A stretch of DNA of 64,000 nt, taken from Mobula hypostoma. Taxonomy: Eukaryota. The position numbers and the translations under genes were made by a program. The notes below the pieces were generated by a model. That model was not told where the DNA came from and did no database searches. It was given only the letters and a program-made list of their open reading frames with translations. Numbering within the stretch: the stretch's first letter is position 1; every line of letters begins with the position of its first letter. The stretch is from contig NC_086108.1 in assembly GCF_963921235.1 (NCBI RefSeq), positions 80,788,001 to 80,852,000 of the forward strand, written 5' to 3'. Positions 2,315-58,828 of this stretch are shown piece after piece.

Positions 2315-2415
2315 AAGCACACACAAAATGCCAGAGGAACTCAGCAGGTCAGAGAGCACCTATGCAAATGAATAAACAGTCAACGTTTCGAGTTGAGACC
2401 CTTCTCAGGACTGGT
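2315..2415 (-). mobile_element. Penelope-terminus (pLTR-like) fragment
   Basis: Homologous to 8370-8470; carries a decayed hammerhead core. Confidence 0.7.
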
Positions 2416-3244: not shown

Positions 3245-3946
3245 ATGACAACTAAGCACATGCCTTTATCTCAAGAAACCTTAGCTAAATTCAATCAAAC
3301 TCTGACTGAAGATGGTTTGGAACCACGGCCTCGTGCAACCTCTATTTCTACCCGTAGAAGTTCTCAGACAATGGATATTCACGCTGGCAAACATTATCCA
3401 CATTTGAAGAATGCAGAAGGAAGAGCACATATGTCGTCCAGAAAGAGCTCCGTTATAAGCAATGTGAATATACCATTTTCTCGTAAAGGCTCTTTGCTGC
3501 TGGGCAAAAGGCACTCCATGAGCTGGATGACCTCTGGTCAAGTCAGTTTCTCTGGACTGCCTCTGTACCAACCTATCAGAGAAGTAAGCTACGAAAACAC
3601 ATACAAAGTTCAACCAGATGAAGGCTGCAAGTTTAATGCCACCAAAGTCCAAAAGATCTTGGAGGCCATTCTTCCAAGCTACCTGGCTGACAATAAATAC
3701 AATCCTGTAACATCTGTGCAGCTGGTGCAGAGTTTAACAGACCACATCAGATTGAAGGTGAAGGATATCAATGCCCCTAGATATAAGCTGGTATGCAATG
3801 TGGTGCTGGGCCAACTCAATGACCAGGGAATGCAAATTGTCAGTCGTTGTCTGTGGGATACATCGACTGACAATTATGCGACAGCCACTTTCAAAAACTC
3901 CTCACTTTTTGCTGTTGCAACTGTATATGGCTTATACTTTGAATAA
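3245..3946 (+). CDS. DYNLT4: Dynein light chain Tctex-type 4 (TCTEX1D4), single coding exon, 233 aa
   Basis: C-terminal Tctex-1 domain (YENTYK..P...F; PRYKLVCNVVLGQ; SRCLWDTSTDNYATATFKNSSLFAVATVYGLYFE) plus a Ser/Arg-rich N-terminal extension with VSFSGLP. A splice acceptor (tttatcctccag, AG at 3225-3226) precedes ATG 3245, so the ORF-track start at 3197 is probably intronic. Tail-to-tail with PLK3, as in human. Confidence 0.9.
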   Translation: MTTKHMPLSQETLAKFNQTLTEDGLEPRPRATSISTRRSSQTMDIHAGKHYPHLKNAEGRAHMSSRKSSVISNVNIPFSRKGSLLLGKRHSMSWMTSGQVSFSGLPLYQPIREVSYENTYKVQPDEGCKFNATKVQKILEAILPSYLADNKYNPVTSVQLVQSLTDHIRLKVKDINAPRYKLVCNVVLGQLNDQGMQIVSRCLWDTSTDNYATATFKNSSLFAVATVYGLYFE

Positions 3947-5332
3947 CTAATTTATCTGAATGTACAATCATGCCTAAAAGAATATTTACAGAGTGATTTA
4001 CTCAGTCAGATAAAACATAATCCTATAGCTGAAAATCAGTATTTAATTTTTAATTTAATTATTTCCATATTAAATATTACTTATGATAGTTGCTTTGTTA
4101 TGCAGAAATCACTAGAAGAGGACAGTCATGTAGAGGCTCCATTTGACAGATGATATATACAACACTATTAGAACTCACCCATTACTCAACACTTCCCCTG
4201 AAGAAACAAAGGTGGAAGATTTAGAAGAGAACTTATCCTACATATCTTGAGTTGTTTCCAAGCCCAAGAATGACAATGAGGTAAACCTGAAAACAAATTG
4301 CCAAATCCTTCCTTGGACGGAAAATGTTTAGTTATCGAGGGAGGGGCGACTTAGTTGGTGCATAGGCACCTGTGCATAATTCCTTGCAACTTAATTCGTA
4401 TTTTATCATTTGCTCATGACAATCAAATTCTTAGACGCACTAGACGCTATGGCCAAAAATTAATTCAGTTTTTGTTAAAAGCCAAAGAAACAAGCAAGTA
4501 ACCTTATTTTGACATTTACAAAATCAAGATACAATTATCAATCACTAGAAAATAGTCACTGGCTTAAGGTAACTTTTTCTCCATTTTCTCATTTCTTGCA
4601 ATAGATTAATCTTTTGATAGGTTATTTTTGGCACTTTCATTTAGGTTGACATAATGGAAGCCTAACTTTCCAGCCTTGCTGCTCTCTTTGCCAACATACT
4701 GCTTATTTTCCCGAAGCATTTTAATGGAGGAGTTCCACCATACAATCTCCCAGTTAACTTACAGATGCTTTGCCTTCTAATTTTCAGTATCTTTGCTTAC
4801 ACGTGATGATAAGCAAAATACCAAGGGTGAGTGATTGATATAAATATTTAGTCCCAAACACTAGAAATGTTCATATTTTGCTAAATGTACCTGTAAGTCT
4901 ACTAAATGCTAGACTAGACTTCAATAGTGAAATTATGAGGAAAGGGCACAAACTAGTTAGTAGTTGCTAGAATTTAAAAAAAAAGCTTATGGTGACATTT
5001 GGTTGAAGTATGCAAAATTTTAAGGGGGTCTGATTGGGAGATGGATAGTCAAAAACTATTTCTACTGGTTAGGAAGTGTTGAACTGAGGAGCACGTAATG
5101 AAATATGTTCATCCATCAACTCATGCAATCCAATAAGTAGCCTTAAGGATTGGTGGGATTTGACTTTAGATCTTTTAATTATTATACCTATATTTTAATT
5201 ACATAATATACATTTAGTGTATAGAGAAAGTTTGGTTCCAGAATTTAATGATTAATAATAAAGAAAGAATTAGAGATTGCATGACGATGGTGTATAAACA
5301 AACATATCTACTGTGTTTACTGATGCTGTGTT

Positions 5333-5338
5333 AATAAA
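5333..5338 (+). terminator. Probable DYNLT4 polyadenylation signal AATAAA
   Basis: AATAAA followed by a GT/T-rich tract (gtttttttctgtgtttct). A second AATAAA lies at 5257-5262. Confidence 0.5.
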
Positions 5339-6269
5339 GGGTTTTTTTCTGTGTTTCTATTTATTGTATATTTCCAAACCCTTCTGCTACATTTTGCCAC
5401 CATATTATGCCTGATGAAAAGTCTAAGTGTTCACTCATTGCAAACAGACAACTTCAAATCAGCAGTATTTTCAGTAATGAAAACTTATCACTGTGCTGAG
5501 TATCTGAAGTCTTTTGTTCAGAAAGACCTATTTAGAGGTCGTGGACATCAAGTTCCTACATGTGCAGAAATTGGGAGCAACTGTATCTTAACACATTCAG
5601 CTGGTTAGCCCCACTCCTCTGGTTGGGTGCTGGATAACTAGCAAGTTCAGCTATGACAATCACTGCTTGCCCATTGAGGACAAAACAGGATTATAGGAAC
5701 ATGAGGTCAGTCTATTCACATATCTGCTCTTTCATTACATTAGATCTTGACTAACCTATAGCTGGAATTTACTTAAACACCCTGCATCACAGTGAACAAA
5801 AAAACATACCATAGAATTGTTGTGTACAATAACCTCTTCAATACTCTGACATGCAAAAGAGCAGCTTCACCAGATTTATGATGCCACACTGCTGCAGAGT
5901 TAAGATGGACAGTGAACTCCATTTATGTGGGTACATGTGTCCAACTAAAGCTTTCAAGGAATGAATATTTTACACATAATAGTTGATAAGTTGCTTAATC
6001 TGAGAGCTTTCCTGTCAAGCTATATTGGAGTTCAAATTATTACCATATTATCATATGTGAGAGTGTATGTTTTCACATGAGAGTTTGCTTTATGAGACCC
6101 ATGAGTAATCTGTTGGGTTGTTAATGATTGAAATAAGTGAATCAAATAGGTTAACTTTATAATGAAAAAAATGGGAGAAAAGAATCACAGAAATTAATGG
6201 CACAGATGGAAATATTTTACCAATTGTGTCCACACCAACTAAAAATTCCACTTCCCACCTCTTAGAATA

Positions 6270-6560
6270 GATTAGATTGGATTAACTTTATTTGTAATAT
6301 GTACATCAAAACATAGAGTGAAATATATTGATTGAGTCAAGGTGAGTACAGTCCAAGATATGCTGACGGAAGCCCAATGTGCCACCATGCTTCTGACGCC
6401 AACATAGCATGCCACAACTTACTAAGCCTAAAGTACATCTTTGGAATGTGGGGGGAAACCCACAAAGTCAAAAGGGGAAAGTACAAACTCCTTATAGCCA
6501 GTGGTGGAATTGAACCCGGGTCACTGGCACTGTAGTACCACTCTGACACCATGCACTGTA
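6270..6560 (-). mobile_element. tRNA-derived SINE
   Basis: Box-B-like cccgggttcaattcc; body shared with the copies at 7370-7680 and 39575-39820. Confidence 0.65.
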
Positions 6561-7367
6561 GTATATGGCTCCTCAAGTGTTGTTCCAGGAACATTTTAGA
6601 TATGGTGACCATTTCTGCCCATCACCTTTTTCAGGTAGAGTTCCAGAGCCCCAGCAATCAGCGAAATTGTTTTAGCAACCCCTTTCGAAACTTTCTGCTA
6701 ACTGACAATAAAATGTTTTGGGAAAATAAGCAGTATGTTGGCAAGGAGAACAGCAAGACTGGAAAATTATGCTTCCATTATGTCAGCCCAAATGAAAGTG
6801 CCAAAAATAACCTATCAAAAGATTAATCAATACCCACTAATCTCTGATCTCTCTGCAAATGGAGACAGATCCTATCTGTTTGTGCTGTTTAGGTATTCTC
6901 ATTTAAATCTCCCCTCAGTCTCCATTGTTCCAAAAACAACAATTGCCTTGTCAGTTTTCCTGGTAATTATAATTCTTCATCCAAGATAGCAGCTTCAGAG
7001 TCTCCTCTCTGCATTATACATCCTTCTGTAATAGGAATCAAACTCTGGAGATCCCAGAATGGAGCAGAGTAAATATAAAATTCAATTCGATAATTCATAA
7101 AGAATGTGTGTAAAATTTGGCATGTTTGAATCACTTTATTTCAACACTTTTCCTATTTAGTTTTGTTTGAGAGATCTGGAGGCTTGGCAAGTATTCAGTG
7201 TGAGTGTAGGCAAGAGGACATTTTATAGATAGATATTATGCTTCTCACAGCTTTAATTGTTGTAATTATTCTAAACACGGGTCAACGTTTATCTCCCTGA
7301 TACGAACTAGTCTGTAGGTTCCAGAGGATATCCATTGAAGGTGAGATGAAAGTCGAAGGGAAAGTGG

Positions 7368-7682
7368 TCAGCACGGTAGCCTAGCAGTTGGCGCAGTCAT
7401 TTGACCATGGCAGAGATCAGCAGTTGGGGTTTGATTTCCGCCGCTCTCTGTAAAGTGTTTGTATGCTCTCCCCTTGACCCGCACAGGTTTTCTCCAAGTG
7501 CTCCGGTTTCCTCCCACATTCCAAAGACATACAGTTAGGGTTAGTGAGTTGTGGGTAAGCTACGTTGGTGCCAGAAGCATAGTGACACTTGCCGGCTGCC
7601 CCCAGCAGAGTGTGTCACAAAATGACGCATTTCACTGATGTTTCGATGTACTTGTGACAAATAAAGATGATCTAATCTAAAG
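7368..7682 (+). mobile_element. tRNA-derived SINE
   Basis: gcacggtagcctagcagttggcgc...ggggtttgatttcc...ctccggtttcctcccacattccaaagac...gtgacaaataaag. Confidence 0.7.
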
Positions 7683-8338
7683 ATGTCAGAGCAGGGATTT
7701 TATACAAATTGGCGGGTGCCTGGAATGTATTACCTAGGCTTTTGGAGATGCTGATGCAATGGGAACATCTTGAAGATTCTTAGATAAGCACATTGATGTA
7801 AGAAAAATGGAGCACTATGTGCTGTAGAGGAGGGAAGAGCTTCATTGGTTGTGGAATAGGTTTATATAGGTCAGCATACAATCATGGGCTGTACTGTTCT
7901 ACATTCTATGGTAAACTTAGAAGTCATCTTATATATGGATCTTCACACAAACAAAACATTAGTCAATAATTTGATTAGTGGGATTAGGATGAAGGACAAT
8001 TTTTCATCCATAACAAACTTGGAGGTCAATGAACACTTTCTGTGCTCTAAATTGATATTTGTATAGTTTTACCCTCTACTTAATTAATTGTTCTAAAGGT
8101 GGACCATCATCGTACTAATGTACTGTTGCTTTGTTGTGTCTAATCCTGAAATTTCAGTGTTGCCTTCCCTCCCAAAGTCTGACTTTAGCCCAGAGGCCTA
8201 GTTGAAAAACAGGCAAACAGAACAGTCACAAAGGGAAAGGGCATTTCAAATCAGCATCCATAATATTTGATTCAAAGTGGTAGAGAATCTTTGTCACTTA
8301 AATATTATAATAGCAAGAAAAATGATAGGAATGTAAAC

Positions 8339-9427
8339 AACAGGAATTCTGCAGATGCTGGAAATTCAAGCAACACACATCAAAGTTGCTGGTGAACGCA
8401 GCAGGCCAAGCAGCATCTATAGGAAGAGGCGCAGTCGACGTTTCAGGCCGAGACCCTTCGTCAGGACTAACTGAAGGAAGAGTGAGTAAGGGATTTGAAA
8501 GCTGGAGGGGGAGGGGGAGATGCAAAATGATAGGAGAAGACAGGAGGGGGAGGGATAGAGCCAAGAGCTGGACAGGTGATAGGCAAAAGGGGATACGAGA
8601 GAATCATGGGACAGGAGGTCCGGGAAGAAAGACGGGGGGGGGGTGACCCAGAGGATGGGCAAGAGGTATATTCAGAGGGACAGAGGGAGAAAAAGGAGAG
8701 TGAGAGAAAGAATGTGTGCATAAAAATGAGTAACAGATGGGGTACGAGGGGGAGGTGGGGCCTAGCGGAAGTTAGAGAAGTCAATGTTCATGCCATCAGG
8801 TTGGAGGCTACCCAGACGGAATATAAGGTGTTGTTCCTCCAACCTGAGTGTGGCTTCATCTTTACAGTAGAGGAGGCCGTGGATAGACATGTCAGAATGG
8901 GAATGGGATGTGGAATTAAAATGTGTGGCCACTGGGAGATCCTGCTTTCTCTGGCGGACAGAGCGTAGATGTTCAGCAAAGCGGTCTCCCAGTCTGCGTC
9001 GGGTCTCACCAATATATAAAAGGCCACATCGGGAGCACCGGACGCAGTATATCACCCCAGTCGACTCACAGGTGAAGTGATGCCTCACCTGGAAGGACTG
9101 TTTGGGGCCCTGAATGGTGGTAAGGGAGGAAGTGTAAGGGCATGTGTAGCACTTGTTCCGCTTACACGGATAAGTGCCAGGAGGGAGATCAGTGGGGAGG
9201 GATGGGGGGGACGAATGGACAAGGGAGTTGTGTAGGGAGCGATCCCTGCGGAATGCAGAGGGGGGGGGAGGGAAAGATGTGCTTAGTGGTGGGATCCCGT
9301 TGGAGGTGGCGGAAGTTACGGAGAATAATATGTTGGACCCGGAGGCTGGTGGGGTGGTAGGTGAGGACCAGGGGAACCCTATTCCTAGTGGGGTGGTGGG
9401 AGGATGGAGTGAGAGCAGATGTACGTG
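8339..9427 (-). mobile_element. Young 5'-truncated Penelope-like element (GIY-YIG endonuclease end + pLTR)
   Basis: The ORF to stop 8762 encodes a GIY-YIG domain (GVIYCVRCSRCGLLYIGETRRRLGDRFAEH) preceded by a Cys motif (PCKRNKCYTC). Flanked by a perfect 18-bp direct repeat AATGATAGGAATGTAAAC (8321-8338, 9428-9445). Confidence 0.9.
8433..8468 (-). ncRNA. Minimal type-I hammerhead ribozyme in the Penelope terminus
   Basis: Minus strand: AGUC-CUGACGA-AGGGUCUCGGCCU-GAAAC-GUC-GACU. Stem I AGUC/GACU, complete catalytic core, stem II, palindromic ACGU stem III, GUC cleavage triplet. Confidence 0.75.
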
Positions 9428-10868
9428 AATGATAGGAATGTAAACTCTCTTCAGCATCTGTGAAGAGAGCAAAAACTAAATATAGTTCCTTTCATGATCT
9501 TTGGTGATACTCTAGCTCTCTGGTTTGTATTCACATAGAAATTACATCAATATTTACATAGTTGCTAAATGATCCTAACGGTGGAAACTTGCACTTACAC
9601 ATTCAGTGAGGTTTTCAGGTCAGCAATGCCCCAGATGATAATAAATTAGCACAATGTAGTACCACTAACTTTTATCATGTTGTATTTTATCACAATTCAT
9701 AGTATTTGAATTGAACTTTAAATAATTTTGCAATTCAGTCTAGTAATTCATTGCATTTATGTTTGAGCAGCTTCAAGATTTATGACATCGTGCCTTGATC
9801 AATTTGAATGAGGGATGGAGTTCAGTCTGACTCTCCTAAACTATGAAATAAAAGAAAGAAGAGCAGCATTTTTTATGAGCAACTAGTTAGGCCATTCAAT
9901 TTGAAAATAGCAGAAAAGTAAACTATGTTATTCAGACCAAACTATTGCAGAGTGTAAAATACAGATAACACATGCCCTTTGGTAGTAAATACAAAGTAAA
10001 ACAAACTCAGGTATCTGGTGTGTGAATATAAAGCAACTTCAAGAATACACATTACCATAATGTCCAAGGATATTATGAAACTTTCCTTTCTAAATCATAG
10101 CTAGAAAATTGGAATGTACTTCAACGATAAAGCATACAGCACGGTACAAAAGCAAAGATATAATGCTCAAGCTTTATACTGTTAATTAGACTATGGAGTA
10201 TTATGTCTGGTTTGGACATGAGGAGGGGATTAAAATGAGATTAACACAGGATTCACATAATTGGTGGTTGATTGTCAATGTGGATTCTGTGAGCTGAAGG
10301 ATCCATTATCGTGCTGTATGCCTCTATTTTAGGATCATGTGGCCTGACAATTGTATCATATCTAAGGAATGCAGGAACTCCACGGTACGTGGGAAGACTG
10401 GATAAACTGGCTTGGCTTTAACTGCTGTAAAATAAAGAATGATTTAGCAGTTGTACTAAAACATTGGAGGAGGCGAGGGTGATGAAAGGATATGTAGAGA
10501 AGCAGGATCTTGAACTATCCATATAGCATTGAATGATGAAGGCTTCTCCAAGGTCAATGACAGAAAAAAAAATTATACCCAGAAAATTAAGAAAACAACC
10601 TGGGGCAAAAACACTAAAAGAAATGAAGCAAGTTGCTGAGATCTTGTATGCATTTACACTAGTTTTGCTTGAACCAGCACGGATAACTTCAGAAACCTCA
10701 CTGAATTAACTTCGCGGCCTATGGGCTAATTTTCAAGGACTCTGCAACTCGTTCTCAGTATTATTTATTTTCCATTTCTATTATTTGCATGATATGACTT
10801 CTTTTGTCCATTGGCTGTTCGTCAGTCTTTATTATTTATAGTTTCCATAAGTTATATTATATTTCTTG

Positions 10869-11750
10869 CCCGGAGAGACGGCATCCGGGGCAGAACGGGC
10901 TGGCAACCCAATCTGTGTCCTCTGAGAGGAGGACCCCCACAAAAGCTACAATGAATCTAAGGGAAAGATACCCCCAGGGGTGCCCGAGAGGGGGGGAGGA
11001 TGTGCACCCCAGTCAGATGGACACAACGACATCAGACCCAGGCAATGAACAAACGACGATGAGGAAGCAGTGTGCATGTGGCAAAATCTGCATGAACGAT
11101 CGCGGCTTGAAGATCCACCAAGCGAGGATGAAGTGTTTGGCAGGAACAGGAGCAGCACAACGCGCAGTTGTCCAACCTGGTGAGACGAAGGAGGGGCCAG
11201 GCCCGGAGTCACCCCATAGTGCCCAGAACCTCCAAGTGTTGCAAACTAATCCCTCTAACATGAAGTCTAACAGGAGGCAGATCAAATGGCCTGCAGCTAA
11301 CATGACTTCACTGTGGAAGCAGTTTGATGAAGATGTTAACCAAATTCTGGAGGCAATGGCGAAGGGAGGGGTTGATAGGAAGCTGCAAGCCATGACAACA
11401 ATTATTGTCAGTATCGCAGCTGAACGGTTCCCAGTGGAGATTAGTTGTCGGGGATTCGTAGCCCGTTCCTTAGTTAGAGCCTTCAGCATTTTGGACATCG
11501 AGGGAGAGAGGAAGAGGAGAGGAAGAGGAGAGCCATCCGCAGTACCACCGATGCGGCAGAGAGGGCCTCAAGATGGCTGTGGCTCAAAAGAGGGGAGCCA
11601 TGGAGTCATAAGTAGCTAGCCATCTGGACATAAGCTGGGGTCTGGTCAGCCCTGGCTGGGTCACCTGGGGGAGGTTGTATAATGTTGAAAGACCCGAAAC
11701 ACCCGATGATTCCAGGAACATCACTGAAGATGTGTCCAGAAGCATCAATA
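10869..11750 (+). mobile_element. Internally deleted HERO-like (restriction-like endonuclease clade) non-LTR retroelement
   Basis: N-terminal zinc finger (CACGKICMNDRGLKIHQARMKC) and RRQIKWP/W..FDED motifs are joined directly to the C-terminal PVEISCRGF motif; AERASRWLWLKR follows in a shifted frame. No RT domain. Boundaries are approximate. Confidence 0.7.
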
Positions 11751-12655: not shown

Positions 12656-13024
12656 TTTCCTGTAAATGCCTGCAAATGAATCTCCAAGTAGTTCTGTTTA
12701 TGGTGACGTACAAATTCACAGTTTGATAGCTAATATACTTTGACTTGACTTTGGTCAAGAAATGCAAAATGCCCCTATAGAAAGCCTTCACTTATTTCAA
12801 ATACTTGGGTTTTACTACAAAAAAAGAGCAACTTTTTTATTGGCAATATCTTCCTTGGGGCATTCAATGTAATAATAACACAAAAGTAAATTATTCAGAT
12901 CAAATTAGAGAATTGGAAAATACAGATAACACATGGCCTTTGATAGTAAATATAACACAAAATAAACTCAAGTGTCTGGTATGTGACCTAACCAGCCACC
13001 TGAATAGGCCACATTTGGAGTCGT

Positions 13025-16049: not shown

Positions 16050-16055
16050 TTTATT
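16050..16055 (-). terminator. Probable PLK3 polyadenylation signal AATAAA
   Basis: Plus-strand tttatt. On the minus strand it is preceded by AU-rich elements and followed by a T/G-rich tract. Implies a ~1.8 kb 3'UTR. Alternative signal at 15799-15804. Confidence 0.65.
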
Positions 16056-16186: not shown

Positions 16187-16829
16187 CCTAATTAAATATT
16201 AGGGAATCCAGCCATCACACCCAGAGGTAATTAGAAATCTCAACTTTCGATTGAACAATTTGTAGCAGTTGAAATGCAACTTCTCTCCCCCTCTTTGATC
16301 ACCATTTCCCTATGCCAAAACATTTATACTAAAGTTTGAGATCCAACTATCAAAACTTCACCTTTGCATTTTGAAAAACATTCTGCCTTTGAATGTTGTC
16401 TTCATCTGCAGTCTTATATCGCCTAAACATCCATGTCTCCTATCCCCAAATCTGGACCTCAAATATGAGGATACAAATTTAGTGCTCGTAACTGAATGCT
16501 GTCAACAAATGCACTTAGATATGGCCTTGATCACCTCTGAATCTGATGTGCGAAAATGGGAAGCTGTCTTGGAACGTCAGTGGATGGAATTTTGTCTCAT
16601 AATTTAAACATTTAGTATTGCATCTTAAATAGTAAACTGCAAATACTCCACTTTAGTGCTTCCATGAATAGACAGGGATCACTATTGGAAAATCTGGTTT
16701 CCAATCCATCCATCAAGCAGTGGAAAGAGATGCTCCACCTCACAGCAACTGCCAGAGGTTACTGCAACTGTAACATGTCATGATTTTGATCAAGATAAAC
16801 CAAAACCAAGTATCAATGATTTTTAAACA

Positions 16830-17050
16830 TGAGATTCTACAGATGCTCAAAATCTAGAGCACCATAGCCAAAATGCTGGAGAATTCAACAGGTTGGGTAG
16901 CATTATGGAAATGAATAAACAGTCTTTGTTTCAGGCCGAGACCTTTCATCAACCATGAAGAGTCTCAGCCCAAAATATCTACTGTTTATTTATTCCAATA
17001 GATGCTGCCTGACCTGCCAAGTTCCTCCAGCATTTTGGGTGCTTTGCTCT
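16830..17050. mobile_element. Inverted pair of Penelope termini (fold-back) inside PLK3 3'UTR
   Basis: ccaaaatgctggag 16868-16881 pairs with 17025-17038; aataaacagt 16914-16923 pairs with 16981-16990. Confidence 0.75.
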
Positions 17051-17838
17051 GTATCAATGATTTTTACCTGGATCCCTGTGAGATGTACAGGAAAGTTAAG
17101 TTCATGTTCATTTGTAACACAAAGTCAGAATTCTAAGCAGCTGGGTATTCAGCTCATTTGAGCATTCAAGTTTACCAAAATCCATATTTATGACCAGTAG
17201 ATTGTAAAAGCAAAATATTCACCAAGTCTTCATTCACAAGCAGTTTCAAAGTTTACATATAGCTTTTCAAACTTTAAGTTATAGGGCAAGACTTGGAAAT
17301 ATTTCAACTATCACATTGGACCATTTTTTGCTCAAGTAAAAGCAGTCGTTCTCAGGAAGGATGTAGTAAAATTTGAACATGTACATTTGCTCATGACAAA
17401 CTCAAACCCAAAAGTTTAGAAGGTTGCCTAATGACATGTCAAGTTAACCACTTATCAGGACCAATTTAGTATAGAGGCCCAATTTTGTCAGATTTAGGTA
17501 GCAGTAAGTCATCCCCATTACTACCAACTAATGTCAAGAACAATTATTCTGGAAGTCCTCAAATACTAAAGGAGTCAGAAACAATTTTGATAACTCATGT
17601 TCACATCTGTTTTGATTAGTGATATATAAAAAAAATGCAAACTAAAATGACTAAGAGCTAGATTTTAAATTTTATCTACAATATTCCCTATCTCCCAATA
17701 CAGCAGCAAATTTTAGCCAGACACTGGCCAGTTTGATACTGATACTCAAATACCTCAGTATCTTGCACCCCTTTAAAAACTCCATAGTAGAAGCTGTTAA
17801 ATACTGTGTGGACCTCTCCCGAAGGTTTCATTTCACAT

Positions 17839-31341
<13,503 letters not shown>

Positions 31342-31987: not shown

Positions 31988-32108
31988 CACAAGAGATTCT
32001 GCAGATGCTGGAAATCTTGAGCCACGCACTCAAAATGCTGGAGGAACTCAGCGTCTATGGAGGGAAATGAACAGTCGACGTTTCGGGCGAGATCCCTCAT
32101 CATGACCA
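31988..32108 (-). mobile_element. Penelope-terminus fragment upstream of PLK3
   Basis: Homologous to 8339-8470; hammerhead core with C3->A. Confidence 0.75.
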
Positions 32109-33679
32109 AAGTTAACTGAACAGAGATGTAAAATATTATAGTCTATTGAATGATCTCTCCCATTTGTATATAACGCTTTCACCCATTTATGTCATCGGCT
32201 TTTTTTGCGAAATGGTTATGTGGCTTTTCTGCACAGTAACGATATTAAAGTAACGTTAGCAACAAGACAAAGAGCTTTTCCTTTGTGTGACAGTTGACCC
32301 CTTCACATGTCCATGCTATCTTCCACAGTTTTGTTACAGCCTCCTTTTTCCCTCTCCTGAGAAACTCGTGTTTAACTTTGTTTCAGTCTGGGATGTAGAT
32401 GGCGAGGTTAATATGTCCTGCCTGTTCCTAATTGTCATTCAGTTAAATGGTTTGCTCGGTCTTTTCAGTGACCTATGGTTGCTTCACTATGGTGGAATGT
32501 TTCTTAGAGATACATTCGGGATTATCTCATAAAACGAGTCTACCATTCAAACCAATAATCACACAATTTAAGTAATGCATTTGGTAATCTTGCCCAGTCT
32601 TCTCACATACATTCACTATTTCCGGAACACAGAAAAGATTAGTATTAGTTTTTTAGTGCTGGAGAGCCCTCTACTGGTTGTCATTTTTCTCCCTCGGGAA
32701 TCCGAATCCTGGTGTTTGGCATTTTTTGTTTGCCTGTATATAATAAAACAAAAAAAAATCGTGGTCAAATAATGACAATACAGTCGTCACTTACTGAATT
32801 AATGGATCACTGCTCCTGTGATTTCCAAGTGGAAATAAGTTGTAGAAACTTGTAATATCAGTCAGGTCCAGCATGGTACCAGACCCCGTAGTATCCAAGA
32901 CATCTTTAAGGAGCGGTGCCTTAAGAAGACGGTGTCCATCATTAAGGACCCCATCACCCAGGGCATGGCCCCTTCTCATTGTTACCGTCGGGATGGAGGT
33001 ACAGCACCCCGAAGGCACACACTCAGCGACTCAGAAACAGCTTCTTCCCCTCTGCCATCCGATTTCCAAATTCAAAGGTCACTGCATGGATCTATCTTCT
33101 AATAATGAAGCCAACTTGAGTGGGATACAGTTCCTTGTTACAGTGCTGATCAGAATTCTTAAATGACACACTGGCCAATTTTTAGCATTTGATGAAAATG
33201 ATTAAGAAACTTACTGCATGAACTGACCTGTTGTGGTTTTGCTGGTATCAGACAAAGCAGCAGAAAGAGTGTTGTACTTGTTTTCAGTGTCCACCCAGCA
33301 ATTTGGTGAAAATTGGCTATCATTGCTTTTCATGATTAAAGTGAAATAAAATCTTTGTTTTCCAGAACAGGAGAGCTGGTGTTGTTTATAGAACAAGTGT
33401 TCCCAGTGAAACAGCACACAAAGTGACCCCACATCTAGGTCCTCAACAATTCACGACAATTGCAGCATCACGTGTTAAAGTGAAAAAGTCTTTCCCTTTT
33501 CTACAAATCACAAATGCCATTCTGGACTCCAGAACTGGGGCCCAAGCCATTTGTAAACCTCCAGCATGTTGTGAGTGTTGCCCAAGCCATTCATCTGGAT
33601 TGAGTGGGCTATGGGACTCTTTCAGTGCAAGGAAGATCCATAGAAAAAGTCACTGGACACAACCCTTTTTGAAGACTTT

Positions 33680-36854: not shown

Positions 36855-38197
36855 AAACACGAAAAAATCTGTAGATGCTGGAAGACCAAGGCAACACACA
36901 CAAAATGCTGGAGGAACTCAGTAGGCCAGGCAGCAGCTATGAAAAGGAATGAACTGTTCACGTTTCGGGCCGAGACACTTGATCAGGACTAGATTGAAAG
37001 ATGAGAAGTCAGAGTAAGAAGGTGGGGGCAGGAGAGGAAGATTTTTCAAGAAGGCAGGTGATAGGTGAAACTGGGAGAAGGGAAGGGAGTGAAGTAAAGA
37101 GCTGGGAAGTTAATTGGTGAAAGAGATGAAAGGGCTAGAGGAGGGGAAATCTGATAGGAGAGGATAGATCATGGAAAAAAGGGAAGGAGGACCACCAGAG
37201 GGGGGTGATGTGCAGGGAGGGAAAAGGATGAGAGAGGGAAACAGGAATGGGGAATGGTGAAGGGGGGGTGGGGACAATTGGCAGAAGTTCAAGCCGTCAG
37301 ATTGGAGGCTACCCAGATAGGATATATATAAGGTTTTGCTGCTCCAACCTGAGTGTGGCCCCATCGCAACAGTAGGTGCTCAGCGAAGCGATCTCCCAAC
37401 CTGCATCAGGTCTCACCGATATACGGGAGTCCACACCAGGAGCGGCGGATAGAGTAGATGACCCCAGCAGGCTCACAGGTGAAGTGTCACCTCACCCGGA
37501 AGGACTGTTTGGGGCCCTGGTGGTAGTGAGGGAGGAGATGTGGCACTTGTTCCACATGCAAGGATAAGTACCAGGAGGAAGAATGGTGGAGAGGGGTGAG
37601 TGAACAGCGGGGTCACGTACGGAGCGATTCCTGCCAAAAATGGGCGGGGGTGTTTGAGGGAAAGATGTGCTTAGTGATGGGATCCTGTTGGAAATGGCAG
37701 AATTTATGGAGAATTTTGTGCTGGGAGCAGAGGCTAACAGGCTGGTAGGTGAGCATAAGAGGCCAGGGAACTTGAAGTCTTTGAAAAGATCAAAAGCGAG
37801 TGAAGTGTCATGGATGTAGGTATGAAGGGACTGAACCAGAAGGGGCGATGAAACAGAGTCGGGGTGTGCGGATATAAGTTCAGTGGGGCAGGAACAAGCA
37901 GAAACAAATGGTCCACCTGGACAGGCAGATAGAAACAGGAGCTGTGGAGTAAGGGAACTATGAGGTTTGTGGCAGTGGATGCGAGATCCCCAGAGTAAAT
38001 AAGGTTGGTGATGGTGGTGAAGACATCGGCTTGGTGCCCCTTACTTGAGTCCCGCAAGGGGTAAGTAAGATGAGGTGTCTGAGAGTTGTCGCCTGGCCTC
38101 GGCAAGGTAGTGATCAGTCTGCCAGACTACTACAGCACTTCTTTTATCTGCGGGTTTGATGATGTGATTAGGATTAGTGCAGAGAGAGTAGACAGGC
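36855..38197 (-). mobile_element. Older, internally deleted Penelope-like element
   Basis: Colinear with 8339-9427, plus an RT N-terminal remnant IIKPADKRSAVVVWQTDHYLAEARRQLSD near 38070-38170. Confidence 0.8.
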
Positions 38198-39963: not shown

Positions 39964-42900
39964 ATTGTATGTATTGCACTGTACTGCTGCCCCAGTACCA
40001 AACAAACTTCATGACCTTTGTGAGTGATGATAAACCTGATTTTGATAGGGCTGTCTTTTGTTGACTGAAAGTGGGAAGGGGCCAGGGAGAGGGGAATCAT
40101 GGTTGGGAAAAGGGGAAGGGTGAGGGGAGAGAGCAGGAAGCACCAGAGATACATTCTGTAATGATCAATAAACCAATTGTTTGGAATCAAATGGCGTTGC
40201 CTGGTGTCTCTGGGCTGTGTGCATCTGTATCCGCACCACACTCCCCCCCCATCCACTGCCCTTGGCACTCCTCTATCTTGGCACCCATCCTGTGGCACTC
40301 CATCCTCACCATTATCATTATCCTTTGCTCCTCAATAAGCAATTAAGGTAAATTGGCCTATTGCTAGAGATTTGAGTACAAGAGTAAGAGAACACCACAA
40401 CACCAAAAAAGCCCTTTGGCCCATCTAGTCCATGCTGACCCATTAACCTGACTAGTCCCAGTGACCTGCACCTGGACTATAGCTCTTCATGCCCCTCCCA
40501 TCCATGTGCCTATCCAAATTTCTCTTATATGTTGCTATCTGCTCCACCTTGACAAACACAGAACTGTGCAAAAGTCTTAGGCACTCCAGCTATATATATG
40601 TGCCTAAGACTTGCTCAGTACTGCATGTTAATGACTTGGATATTGATCAAAGCTCGGTGGCAAAGTGAGCTGTGTGGAGGACGAAGGGAGGCTTCAGGAG
40701 CATATTGGCAGGCTAGCATTAAATGTGAAATCAGCTTATAAAAGAAAACTGTGAAATTGAAAGCTGTTGTGTTCAAAAGGACCTAGATCTCCTTGTACAC
40801 GAATCAGTAAGTTAGTGCACGTGTGCAATAAGCAGTTACAAGGGTAATGGCCTTTATTGCCAGAAGATTTGAGTTCAAGAGTCATAGAACACTACAGCAT
40901 GGAAACAGGCTTTTTGACCCATCTAATCCATGCTGAACCATTAACCTGCCTAGTCCATTCAACCTGCACTGGACCATAGCTCTCAATACCCCTCCCACCA
41001 ATGTACCTATCCAAATTCCTCTTAAGTGTTGAAATCGAGCCTGCATCCATCACTTCCACTTATTTACTCATTGATTAATTGATTGAGATACAGTGCGGAA
41101 TAGGCCCTTTGAGTCGCAGCTACCGATTTAACCCTAGTCTAATCACAAGATAATTTACAATGATCAATTAACCTATCAGCCGATTTCCTCATGTTCCCCT
41201 TAAACATTTCACCTTTCACCCTTAACCCACCCCCTCGAGTTGTAGTCTCACCTAACCTCAGTGGAAAAAGCCCGCTTGCATCTACCCTATCTATACCCCA
41301 CATAATTTTGTACACTCTATCAAATTTCCCCTCAGTCTTCTGTGTTCTGGGGATTAAATTCCTAACCTATTCAACCTTTCCCTGTAACTCAAGTCCTCAA
41401 GTCCTGGTAACATGCATTTAAATTTTCTCTGCGCTCTTTCAATCTTATTTGCATCTTTCCTATAGATAAGTGACTAAAACTGCAGACGATACTCTAAATT
41501 AGACCTCACCAATGTGCCTTCATAAAGTGAAAACATCTGACTGAAATTGTGTAGAAATCTGATGAGACAGCAGCTGTAACATTACGTACAAGTCTCATCT
41601 CCCTTACTTGGAATTAAGTAAGTGCAGCAAAGATTCACCAGACTGATGCCTGGAATGTGGGAATTGTCCAATGAGGGAAGTTTAGGATTTGGGCCTATAC
41701 TTGTTTGTAAACATTTAGAAGGATAAGAGGTAGTCACATTAAAATTTATGAAATTCTTTTCATGGAATCATAGAAGATGTCCATTCAGCACTTCATATCT
41801 GAGCTGACACTCAACAGATTCTCCTCTGTAACTTTGCAAATTTATCCTCACCACGCATTTGCCCAATTTTCTTTTGAAGGGTACTGTTAGGGTGTATTCT
41901 GCAGTTATCGTATATAGCAAATACTACTTTTAACAGCAGCCAGTCTTCAGACCTGAACGTGGATTGTAGATTGAACTTAAAACACAGCTCTGAATAATGG
42001 TCTTCCTGGAACTGAATTTTGGGGGTTGATTGCAAACAAAGAACCACTCCATTCGTTTGCAAAAGCCTACATATGCATGAATGCAGCCATTAACATTCAT
42101 TTTGGGTGTTTGGACTGTGGGTGTGAAGACAGAGATGTTTAAAAATTATATGTAATTCAAAGGAAGCATTGTAGAGATATTGTAAGTATAGAATTGTCTT
42201 ATCGTTATCTGAATCCTGATAAAGGAGCTCGGCCTGAAAAATTGACTGTTTACTCTTTTCCATAGATACTTCCTGGCCTGCTGAGTTCCTCCAGCATTTT
42301 GTGTGTTTTGCTTTGATTTCCAGCATATGCAGATTTTCTCTCGATTCTGCCATTACCTTTGATCTTTAGCATATAAAAATGTCATGTAATATTGGGTCAG
42401 ATGGGCCTCTTCTTCCAAGAGCATCTCGAATAGCTGCTTGTTTTGCTGAATAAAGATTTCTATATCCACTAGCTTCAGTGTCTCCCCGGTGACTTTGTTC
42501 ACAGTTACTGTATTTGGGGGCTCATCCAGGGTATGTTCATATCTCACCATGTGGCCAGCGATCTCAGCAATCTGAGTGGGTGAGTGTTTTTTTTTATGAT
42601 TAGTATTCACACTTAGATTTGTTCAGGCCAATGACTGCGAGATCACAAAGTACCATAGGTATGGCAGAGAGCTGAGCCAGTAGATATAAAAGTAATGTAG
42701 AGTGTGTGCATGCATGTGTGTTTATGTAAGAGAATAGACATTTTGTGTTAATGTGGTGAAACTGGGCCACCAGTTGTGAAGGATAGTTACTGACCATTAG
42801 GGACACCAGTGGGGTGCGTTTATACTCATTTGGGAAACTGTATCGCAGCAGACACGTTTGTGAGTGTGTTTGTGTGTGTTAAGAATAGGTCTGTAATCTT

Positions 42901-55094: not shown

Positions 55095-58000
55095 GGTGGT
55101 GGCATCCGTTAGTCTCGCGAGACCATGGATCTGCGCCTGGAAGGTCTTGCTTCAGTCTGTGTTAGAGCAGCATCTGTTGTGACTGTAGAGGCCCACACAG
55201 GAGTGACAGTCTCGGCTGCAGCGACTGAAACTGAAGGCACTGTCCTCCAGTGTTGTCTTGGTGCTGTTTTTCTGACGAGTGCGCTTTTCTTCAGCAGCAA
55301 GCCTCAGCTTCTCTCCTTCTCTTTTTAGACCTCTGCGTAGTTCCAGCCTCCAGTGAGAGCGATCGCTTGCAATGTCCTCCCACCTCTCGATGTTCATTTT
55401 CAGTGACTTCATGTCTCTCTTGCAAACGTCTTTGAAACGAAGATGGGGCCGCCCTTGTGCTCTCTTGCCGGAGGCCAGTTCCCCGTACAGCAGGTCTTTC
55501 GGGATCCTCCCATCTGACATGCGGTGTACGAAGCCCAGCCAGCGGAGATGGTGTTGTTGGAGCAGGGTGAAAAGGCTGGGTATCTGAGCACGGGCCAGGT
55601 CCTCATTGTTGGTGACTCGGTCAACCCACTTGATGTCCAGGATGCGTCTCAAGCTGTGATGGTGGAAGGCGTTGAGACGCCGCCCTTGTCTGTAGTAGAG
55701 ACTCCAGGTCTCGCTGCCGTAAAGCAGTGTGCTGAGGACGCAGGCCCTGTAGACTGCAACCTTGGTGTGCATCATCAGCTTTCTGTTCTCCAGACTCTCT
55801 TTGTTAGCCTGGCGAATGCTGAGGCTGCTTGTCCAATCCGTCTGTTGATCTCGGGGTCTAGGGAGAGGCTCTCACTGATGGCAGAGCCAAGGTATGTAAA
55901 CTTGTGAACTACCTCCAGTTCGTAGTTGTTGATGGTGATGGCAGTGGGGTGCTCAAAGCCTTGGCCCAACACGTTTGTTTTCTTCAGGCTGATGGTCAAG
56001 CTGAAGTCCTGGCAGGCTCTTGAGAAGCTGTCCATGAGGCGCTGCAGTTACTCTTCAGGGTGTGTTGCCAGTGCCACATCATCTGCAAACGACATGTCCC
56101 TGATGAGTACTTGGGTAAGAGTGACCATAATATGGTGGAATTCTTCATTAAGATGGAGAGTGACATAGTTAATTCAGAAACAAAGGTTCTGAACTTAAAG
56201 AAGGGTAATTTTGAAGGTATGAGACGTGAATTAGCTAAGATAGACTGGCAAATGACACTTAAAGGATTGACGGTGGATATGCAATGGCAAGCATTTAAAG
56301 GTTGCATGGATGAACTACAACAATTGTTCATCCCAGTTTGACAAAAGAATAAATCAAGGAAGGTAGTGCACCCGTGGCTGACAAGAGAAATTAGGGATAG
56401 TATCAATTCCAAAGAAGAAGCATACAAATTAGCCAGAGAAAGTGGCTCACCTGAGGACTGGGAGAAATTCAGAGCTCAGCAGAGGAGGACAAAGGGCTTA
56501 ATTAGGAAGGGGAAAAAAGATTATGAGAGAAAACTGGCAGGGAACATAAAAACGGACTGTAAAAGCTTTTATAGATATGTAAAAAGGAAAAGACTGGTAA
56601 AGACAAATGTAGGTCCCCTGCAGACAGAAACAGGTGAATTGATTATGGGGAGCAAGGACATGGCAGACCAATTGAATAATTACTTTGGTTCTGTCTTCAC
56701 TAAGGAGGACATAAATAATCTTCCAGAAATAGTACGGGACAGAGGGTCCAGTGGGATGGAGGAACTGAGCGAAATACATGTTAGTAGGGAAGTGGTGTTA
56801 GGTAAATTGAAGGGATTGAAGGCAGATAAATCCCCAGGGCCAGATGGTCTGCATCCTAGAGTGCTTAAGGAAGTAGCCCAAGAAATAGTGGATGCATTAG
56901 TGATAATTTTTCAAAACTCGTTAGATTCTGGACTAGTTCCTGAGGATTGGAGGGTGGCTAATGTAACTCCACTTTTTAAAAAAAGAGGGAGAGAGAAACT
57001 AGGGAATTATAGACCGGTTAGCCTAACGTCGGTGGTAGGGAATCTGCTGGAGTCAGTTATCAAGGATGTGATAACAGCACATTTGGAAAGCGGTGAAATC
57101 ATCGGACAAAGTCAGCATGGATTTGTGGAAGGAAAATCATGTCTGACGAATCTCATAGAATTTTTTGAGGATGTAACTAGTAGAGTGGATAGGGGAGAAC
57201 CAGTGGATGTGGTATATTTGGATTTTCAAAAGGCTTTTGACTTGGTCCCACACAGGAGATTAGTGTGCAAACTTAAAGCTCACGGTATTGGGGGTAAGGT
57301 ATTGGTGTGGGTGGAGAATTGGTTAGCAGACAGGAAGCAAAGTGTGGGAATAAATGGGACCTTTTCAGAATGGCAGGCGGTGACTAGTGGGGTACCGCAA
57401 GGCTCAGTGCTGGGACCCCAGTTGTTTACAATATATATTAATGACTTGGATGAGGGAATTAAATGCAGCATCTCCAAGTTTGCGGATGACACGAAGCTGG
57501 GTGGCAGTGTTAGCAGTGAGGAGGATGCTAAGAGGATGCAGGGTGACTTGGATAGGTTGGGTGAGTGGGCAAACTCATGGCAGATGCAATTTAATGTGGA
57601 TAAATGTGAAGTTATCCACTTTGGTGGCAAAAATAGGAAAACAGATTATTATCTGAATGGTGGCCGATTAGGAAAAGGGGAGGTGCAACGAGACCTGGGT
57701 GTCATTATACACCAGTCATTGAAAGTGGGCATGCAGGTACAGCAGGCAGTGAAAAAGGCGAATGGTATGCTGGCATTTATAGCGAGAGGATTCGAGTACA
57801 GGAGCAGGGAGGTACTACTGCAGTTGTACAAGGCCTTGGTGAGACCACACCTGGAGTATTGTGTGCAGTTTTGGTCCCCTAATCTGAGGAAAGACATCCT
57901 TGCCATAGAGGGAGTACAAAGAAGGTTCACCAGATTGATTCCTGGGATGGCAGGACTTTCATATGAAGAAAGACTGGATGAACTGGGCTTGTACTCGTTG

Positions 58001-58828
58001 GAATTTAGAAGATTGAGGGGGGATCTGATTGAAACATATAAGATCCTAAAGGGATTGGACAGGCTAGATGCAGGAAGATTGTTCCTGATGTTGGGGAAGT
58101 CCAGAATGAGGGGCCACAGTTTGAGGATAGAGGGGAAGCCTTTTAGGACTGAGATTAGGAAAAACTTCTTCACACAGAGAGTGGTGAATCTGTGGAATTC
58201 TCTGCCACAGGAAACAGTTGAGGCCAGTTCATTGGCTATATTTAAGAGGGAGTTAGATATGGCCCTTGTGGCTACGGGGGTCAGGGGGTATGGAGGGAAG
58301 GCTGGGGCGGGGTTCTAAGTTGGAGGATCAACCATGATCATAATAAATGGCGATGCAGGCTCGAAGGGCCGAATGGCCTACTCCTGCACCTATTTTCTAT
58401 GTTTCTATGTTTCATGACCCTTGGTTTTTGCCCTCAGCCGGGACAGACTGAACAGCTTCCCATCCGATCTGGTGTGGAGGTAAACACCATCAGTTGATGT
58501 TCCAAATGCGTGCTTCAGCATGACTGTGAAGAAGATGCCAAACAGGGTGGGGGCAAGCACACAGCCCTGCTTCACACCGCTGCGGATGTTGAAGGCCTCC
58601 GAAGAAGAGCCGTCGAACTGAACGACGCCTTTCATGCCTGTGTGGAATGACTGAACTACCCTGAGGAGCCTTGGGGGACAACCGATCCTGGCAAGGATTT
58701 TGAACAGGTCATCTCTGCTCACAAGGTCGAAGGCCTTCATAAGGTCAATGAAAGTGACATAGTGTGGTTGTCTTTGCTCTCTGCATTTCTCTTGTAGTTG
58801 TCGAAGTGAGAAGATCATGTCTGTGATA
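55095..58828 (-). mobile_element. RTE/BovB-like LINE, 5'-truncated, split by a CR1
   Basis: MIFSLRQLQEKCREQ..FIDL.KAFD..GVKQGCVLAPTLF (58405-58818); FADD; VYRACVLSTLLYGSETW; C-terminal CCHH-like end; TSD TGGTCTGTAAT / TGGCCTGTAAT. Confidence 0.9.
56113..58413 (+). mobile_element. Young 5'-truncated CR1 LINE with nearly intact ORF2 (reverse transcriptase)
   Basis: One reading frame from SDHN to stop 58318, broken only by TGA at 56339-56341; RT motifs YLDFQKAFD, GVPQGSVLGP, FADDTK; tail (tttctatg)n. Confidence 0.95.

Follow-up and report, generated by a model that had tools for sequence, protein, structure and literature searches.

The 36 bases at 8433-8468 on the minus strand of the window (the whole stretch of Mobula hypostoma DNA that was analysed, 64,000 nucleotides, positions 80,788,001 to 80,852,000 of contig NC_086108.1) are very probably a standard minimal hammerhead motif from the terminal repeat of a Penelope-like element (PLE), present as a passive passenger in a dead-on-arrival copy. 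While this class of hammerhead is already described, the analysis adds an age for the insertion from empty sites, a subfamily shift between species and a conservation boundary at the edges of stem I. The motif and its parts, the latter read from the sequence, are as follows.

8433-8468, minus strand: minimal type-I hammerhead motif (sequence, descriptor and shuffles, pair probabilities, window copies, published consensus)
8468-8465, minus strand: 5′ arm of stem I
8464-8458, minus strand: core positions C3 to A9, with C at N7
8457, minus strand: extra unpaired A after A9
8456-8445, minus strand: stem II, 3 bp, with a G·U first pair and a 6-nt loop
8444-8441, minus strand: GAAA
8440-8439, minus strand: C15.2 and G16.2, a single C-G with no loop
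8438-8437, minus strand: U16.1 and C17, the end of the cleavage triplet
8436-8433, minus strand: 3′ arm of stem I

The core (CUGANGA, GAAA and the NUH cleavage triplet) shows zero mismatches, stem I consists of 4 Watson-Crick pairs, and stem II is closed, with 3 bp (4 with a G·U). These features confirm at 8468-8433 the intact minimal hammerhead of the initial annotation, with all core bases, a 4-bp stem I and a loopless palindromic stem III, and the cut predicted there agrees with the canonical position, between 8437 and 8436. The description of the structure needed one correction: it stands as a hammerhead, whereas stem II follows the unpaired extra A and opens with a G·U pair. In this register the pair probability was 0.94-0.95, versus 0.02 for a register with an A-U first pair, and the first stem II position pairs in 7/7 family copies of the window versus 4/7; the A-U register was rejected on these two counts. 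The G10.1-C11.1 pair is G·U in the present copy and G-C in 4/7 window copies. Across the seven copies, 82.9% of hammerhead stem cells are paired, compared to 20-44% for slid partners. The tetranucleotide A15.1-C15.2-G16.2-U16.1 is self-complementary, the loopless arrangement from which a dimer-type architecture had been proposed; a dimer can indeed be drawn, and scores poorly.

The descriptor search suggested at the outset was run on the 64 kb window with a strict loopless descriptor. Its 1 match was the 8433-8468 motif, and 300 dinucleotide shuffles (19.2 Mb, both strands) gave 0 matches. Rfam gave no match at gathering over the window, nor at E up to 10 over 8250-8800, and the hammerhead assignment therefore rests on the descriptor together with the published consensus, NNN-CUGANGAH-G...C-GAAAN-palindrome-NUH, which the motif fits. 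ARAGORN found no tRNA in the window.

The motif lies within an inserted element whose features are listed here.

8339-9427, minus strand: 5′-truncated Penelope-like element of 1,089 bp, with ORF end, pyrimidine-rich spacer, hammerhead and 3′ tail (bounds from the target-site duplication (TSD), depth step and empty sites)
8321-8338, no strand assigned: TSD at the 3′ end of the element (exact 18-mer repeat)
9428-9445, no strand assigned: TSD at the 5′ truncation point of the element (exact 18-mer; single in organisms B and C)
8762-9427, minus strand: PLE ORF remnant with the end of the reverse transcriptase (RT) thumb, linker and endonuclease (three-frame translation; protein matches)
9140-9166, minus strand: CX4CxxC zinc-finger linker (protein alignment; published motif definition)
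8834-9058, minus strand: GIY-YIG endonuclease domain (Pfam PF01541, E 1.1e-4; score 22.8 bits, curated cut-off 22.6)
8339-8436, minus strand: 98-nt 3′ segment past the predicted cut, to the common 3′ terminus of the family (contig loose ends at 8335)

A Penelope-like host had been proposed from the letters of the sequence, and the identification holds: the PF01541 domain and the CX4CxxC linker lie upstream of the motif, and relatives of the element carry RT. The ORF remnant, which is without the RT core and without the promoter end, is interrupted by a single frame break, at a homopolymer run near 9255-9267, and the hammerhead starts 294 nt downstream of its stop. Compared with longer proteins, the ORF gave 18 matches among 369 candidates. 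The best were RT-GIY-YIG fragments in Mobula (94% identity) and Hypanus (89%); P0001 (94%) includes the C-terminal part of the RT, while P0013 (46%) and P0017 (39%) include PF00078. A CX2-5CxxC cysteine linker is reported as a mark of Neptune or Nematis elements that is missing from Penelope/Poseidon (PMC8557442). By this linker, also found in Nematis, the element is probably a Neptune-type PLE. The copy has only one terminal repeat and no tandem or paired pLTR arrangement, a condition common among 5′-truncated copies, which weakens the case for activity and not that for a PLE origin.

Several annotated host proteins of rays and sharks (P0003, P0004, P0012, P0014, P0018) also contain pieces of the PLE ORF, under names that include mucin-2, chitinase-domain and ABHD14A, among others. 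These pieces suggest that the repeat was either drawn into the gene models or genuinely exonised.

The age of the insertion was assessed by aligning 4 public runs (of 24 listed) to 7700-10100. All are contigs, which are unable to show RNA ends or strand, and run X1 may be the window's own source and is not independent of it. A single contig of organism B spans 7700-8320 and passes straight on to 9428-10100, and one of organism C leads from 8176-8320 on to 9428-9759; the site is empty in each. The 18-mer, present exactly at 8321-8338 and 9428-9445 of the window and thus bearing out the perfect 18-bp TSD previously noted, occurs once in each of these organisms (2/2 other organisms aligned), whose flanks diverge from the window by 1.2% and 4.2% in B and C, respectively. 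With empty sites bearing a single copy of the TSD in two relatives, the insertion at 8339-9427 is young. X1 contigs span both junctions, running on through the TSD without a break and at the depth of the flanks, and the sequenced individual therefore appears to be without an empty allele. At 9511, a 10-base stretch found in organisms B and C is missing from the window, whose lineage thus carries a small deletion as well, 66 nt away from the insertion.

The family itself differs between species in a manner consistent with recent growth. At 13 sites, hand-picked from the best 40 of 264 family differences, the letter of the present copy was compared between the families of organisms A and B. Its frequency was 0.33 versus 0.02 at 8430, 0.35 versus 0.01 at 8502 and 0.22 versus 0.02 at 9080, while other letters were common to both families (0.70 versus 0.66 at 8381; 0.78 versus 0.74 at 8476) and the letter at 8602 looks private (0.01). 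These shifts fit a subfamily that would have grown after the A/B split. The earlier reading of a young family and a recent insertion is therefore supported, both by the empty sites in organisms B and C and by the alleles that are commoner in A than in B.

The summed contig depth over the motif is ~5 x 10^5 times the flank depth (X1, X5), a ratio that is not a copy number. Within the window there are six further family copies, none of which (0/6) keeps an intact core.

36865-37753, minus strand: older decayed family copy with an endonuclease remnant, hammerhead core broken (window copy comparison)
16826-17051, no strand assigned: two decayed copies of the hammerhead tail, head to head in the putative PLK 3′ UTR, neither with an intact core
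2318-2412, minus strand: decayed solo hammerhead-tail copy, with a deletion of position 7 of the core
31996-32109, minus strand: decayed solo hammerhead-tail copy, C3 changed
42214-42339, plus strand: decayed solo copy of the hammerhead tail, with changes in G8 and stem III

These relatives were found by BLAST with the 8339-9427 element, a search biased towards conserved stretches. In 6/6, identity to the 8339-9427 copy was 0.66-0.86 over the motif, 0.49-0.72 over the tail and 0.22-0.47 upstream. Contigs of divergent subfamilies cease to match at the stem I edges, 8432 and 8468 (452 and 474 contigs, respectively, in X5; 360 and 350 in X14); among the best 40 of 264 family differences, none lies inside 8433-8468. 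The motif is thus apparently the most conserved part of the family, with its core and stem I boundaries kept, as expected from the family conservation of core and stems that the initial annotation had supposed and as indicated by the 6/6 window relatives and the loose ends. Covariation on the 7 window copies was not above shuffles (154-262 of 500), so the hammerhead structure is supported by conservation and consensus, and not by independent covariation.

A second boundary lies at 8335, where >500 contigs (529 and 525 in X1 and X5) leave the match into unrelated A-rich flanks. These loose ends indicate that family members end at one 3′ terminus, that targets are AT-rich and that target and element end have 4 bases in common: the last 4 bases of the TSD, 8335-8338, also match the 3′ end of the family. 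This microhomology may have primed reverse transcription.

In run X9, which is RNA by guess, the tail bin 8348-8428 had 9.0 times the depth of the upstream bin 8510-8590, versus 1.7-2.4 in three DNA runs. The excess is a weak hint that fits short tail RNAs or many transcribed solo tails, contig depth being unable to rank parts. A tail-motif scan for further copies found 0 stretches in each of the metagenome, viral and prokaryote collections. A protein scan of the metagenomes returned 12 distant loci (30-49% identity). A sense hammerhead followed the match in 0/12, an uninformative count because most loci have little DNA beyond the match; on the minus strand of one contig (L007:1877; 1/12), a hammerhead whose palindromic stem III has 4 nt was seen on the opposite strand, just before a GIY-YIG fragment.

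Two other stretches of the window carry long open frames. At 10798-11619 (plus strand) there is a 273-codon stop-free frame that shows a CxC-like zinc-knuckle pattern and matches no Pfam family, which we take to resemble the N-terminus of a non-LTR retrotransposon ORF, and at 56342-58318 a 658-codon open frame of another young retroelement, presumably a CR1/L2-type LINE reverse transcriptase by its motifs. Segments 9887-10025 and 12855-12986 form an 80-85% identical duplication ~2.96 kb apart, flanking a block with the insertions at 10.8-12.3 kb. The pair is possibly an old long target duplication or a segmental duplication.

Folding predictions indicate that a lone copy of the motif would have its core locked. 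In the isolated 36-mer the core is predicted to be closed by pairing of G5-G8 with C15.2-C17 (probability 0.96-0.98), the closed form scoring -10.0 kcal/mol and the open form -4.6. With at least 22 upstream bases, a competing structure is predicted to form.

8453-8483, minus strand: predicted competing hairpin of upstream pyrimidine tract, 5′ half of the core and start of stem II

When this hairpin is formed, the probability of stems I and II is at most 0.02 (contexts of 76-422 nt), and the open-core fold lies 5.7-9.9 kcal/mol above the free ensemble (five contexts). In a crude comparison, an active-like dimer scored -6.7 to -8.9 kcal/mol, versus -20 for a pair of locked monomers; the best co-fold reached -28.3. 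The folding z-score was an unremarkable -0.37. Because nearest-neighbour folding ignores the tertiary contacts of the hammerhead core and Mg2+, it understates every hammerhead, and these values are to be read for direction only.

Minimal hammerheads in metazoan PLEs, including Neptune elements of fishes, have been known since 2014 (PMC4209133), and the ray motif agrees with those of Cervera and De la Pena in being type-I, in its short stem I, in the extra unpaired base after A9, in having no loop 3 and a palindromic 15.2-16.2, in its pyrimidine-rich 5′ flank and in occurring as a single 3′ motif in a 5′-truncated copy (PMC4209133). Motifs listed there from Ixodes and sea urchin have core letters identical to those of the ray. 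The ray stem II, 3 bp (4 with a G·U), is shorter than most listed, and begins with G·U rather than the G-C preferred by the published consensus, as do several listed examples (PMC4209133). The ray family is also far more abundant than the 4,000-9,000 motifs of coelacanth and Xenopus (PMC4209133). No cartilaginous fish is among the 56 PLE hammerhead motifs listed in the available part of the supplement to that paper. A recent preprint reports PLE-derived type-I hammerheads in vertebrates, including one chondrichthyan genome (10.64898/2026.07.22.740005). We found no published report of a PLE hammerhead in rays, and Lunse, Weinberg and Breaker 2017 may list elasmobranch examples.

With respect to activity, single minimal PLE motifs did not cleave in the published experiments, and dimers and trimers cleaved weakly (PMC4209133); cleavage of PLE hammerheads has been tied to their tandem arrangement (PMC6765202), and 1/9 Xenopus dimer constructs cleaved while 8/9 did not (10.64898/2026.07.22.740005). 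The best-studied comparison is the Poseidon element PAc of Anolis carolinensis, whose motif is reported to cleave only with the element's protein, in a core-dependent manner (PMC11167929). In that study, catalytic mutants had no effect on insertion in vitro, no RNA-seq ends fell at the cut, and uncut RNA was the main template in vitro. The ray element resembles PAc in its pLTR hammerhead, in a 3′ end fixed downstream of the cut, in AT-rich targets and in an apparent uncut-RNA template. In contrast, PAc belongs to the Poseidon clade, has no Cys linker and starts its ORF within the motif, whereas the ray copy is a Neptune-type 3′ fragment (PMC11167929). We found no biochemistry on Neptune-type PLE hammerheads in the literature examined. 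The ray element shares with the Neptune clade the C-terminal GIY-YIG, the CX2-5CxxC linker, the Cys/His pattern, a TSD and 5′ truncation (PMC8557442, PMC3846280); its 18-bp TSD is longer than the 8-10 bp of rotifer examples, and its target is not a microsatellite (PMC3846280). PLE-derived type-I hammerheads are also carried by non-LTR retrozymes, which unlike the ray copy are non-coding tandem repeats (10.64898/2026.07.22.740005). The ray copy was rejected as a retrozyme, being single and attached behind an ORF remnant.

The motif lies between two host genes.

3245-3946, plus strand: Tctex-type dynein light chain gene (Pfam PF03645, E 1.7e-30; cluster members annotated as Tctex-type 5 in two rays)
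17839-18036, minus strand: last coding exon of a polo-like kinase, stop at 17841-17839 (Pfam POLO_box, E 6.2e-11)

The position between convergent genes, in sense to the kinase, was thus correctly described, the two genes being Tctex (plus) and PLK (minus); the name PLK3 is given by synteny only. Kinase exons of the minus-strand gene lie near 27.6 and 24.4 kb and polo boxes near 19.9 and 18.0 kb. Exon-sized searches scored 86.8 bits for PLK2 versus 79.7 for PLK3, and no PLK3 chain was among the 29 matches of a further search. Since PLK3 adjoins TCTEX1D4 in sheep (PMC6334744) and the ray gene also has a Tctex neighbour, it is reasonably named PLK3.

The hammerhead is antisense to the Tctex gene, 4.5 kb past its stop, and in sense to the PLK gene, 9,371 nt past its stop, with 8 AATAAA and 2 ATTAAA in between. 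The likeliest poly(A) signal, chosen by judgement, is the AATAAA at 16055-16050, after an AU-rich tract, and the hammerhead is 7,587 nt past it. At 9.4 kb past the PLK stop and 7.6 kb past that signal, the relevance to PLK3 suggested in the initial annotation is not borne out. Run X9 (RNA by guess) had zero contig depth over the unique flanks 7943-8266 and 9482-9805, which is evidence neither way.

The stretch from the PLK stop (17839) to the AATAAA at 16055 contains the two copies at 16826-17051. With 46-nt arms 5 nt apart and similarity on a 95-nt scale, these could pair with each other in the PLK mRNA as an inverted-repeat duplex. One of them supplies an AATAAA at 16994 on the PLK strand. 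As dimer partners for the intact motif they were rejected: the sense one is without the cleavage triplet and palindrome, and the other is antisense.

Three alternatives to a passive passenger were weighed. It is very unlikely that the copy acts at its locus, that is, that PLK3 read-through is transcribed in sense through the motif and the nascent RNA is cut in trans or with protein assistance, changing termination or RNA fate in this lineage only. The motif is on the strand of the PLK gene with all core bases intact, family RNA may be a plentiful trans partner (7,912 contigs in X9, RNA by guess), and the source individual appears, from the junction contigs, to carry the insertion on both chromosomes. 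Against this stand the distance past the PLK stop and poly(A) signals, the misfolding predicted in native context and the predicted dimer that scores below the locked monomers, and the silence of published single motifs (PMC4209133) and inertness of 8/9 Xenopus dimers (10.64898/2026.07.22.740005). Moreover, two close relatives live without the insertion, and no conserved role is therefore possible for it. The copy had earlier been regarded as potentially active, a view that gives way to a solo 3′ copy with 0/6 intact window partners and a monomer core locked in the predicted fold.

Somewhat less improbable, although still improbable, is that the family retains the motif not for catalysis but for another function, such as protein binding or folding for the RT or endonuclease, cleavage being incidental or absent. 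The normal in vitro insertion of PAc catalytic mutants and the lack of RNA-seq ends at the cut (PMC11167929) favour such a role, as does the proliferation of Naiad PLEs without canonical hammerheads (PMC8557442). The 3-bp stem II and the closed-core rod that is the predicted ground state point the same way, and every spacer-containing copy came from uncut RNA. However, exactly the catalytic core and stem I boundaries are kept, and the PAc motif cleaves core-dependently once protein is added (PMC11167929). A chance match of a short motif has a negligible probability: the motif is only 36 nt, with no Rfam match and an ordinary folding score, but the 19.2 Mb of shuffles gave nothing comparable, family conservation is bounded by stem I, and the published PLE motif has the same position, strand and form (PMC4209133).

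These considerations leave as the likeliest reading, by analogy with the published elements, a slow, dimer- or protein-dependent ribozyme that would serve master elements and is a passenger at this locus. The literature points to an active Neptune-type family, expanding in the ray lineage and transcribed from a tandem master. Its GIY-YIG/RT protein would have nicked an AT-rich site, and reverse transcription would have begun ~100 nt 3′ of the hammerhead on RNA uncut there. Because the copy extends to either side of the cut, the template was presumably uncut or re-ligated RNA. Synthesis would have stopped after ~1.09 kb, with repair leaving the 18-bp TSD; both the TSD and the empty sites are observed. 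That the motif is intact would reflect both a young copy and a family that retains it. In the family's own cycle, cutting would most likely be slow and take place either in a dimer that neighbouring repeats form through their loopless palindromic stem III, or with help from the protein of the element. At 8339-9427 the motif has neither a partner nor its own promoter, and it most likely does nothing.

We consider it highly doubtful that loopless hammerheads of different host transcripts pair in trans via their palindromic stem III and cut each other. If they did, each insertion would equip read-through or intronic RNA of the host with a cleavage site particular to its lineage, in this case past PLK3, and the two sister lineages without the insertion would be natural controls. 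The finding would matter more only if solo copies cut host RNA, and otherwise little. The dated insertion, with filled and empty alleles and many near-identical copies, nonetheless offers a clean Neptune-type template for tests of dimer- or protein-assisted cleavage.
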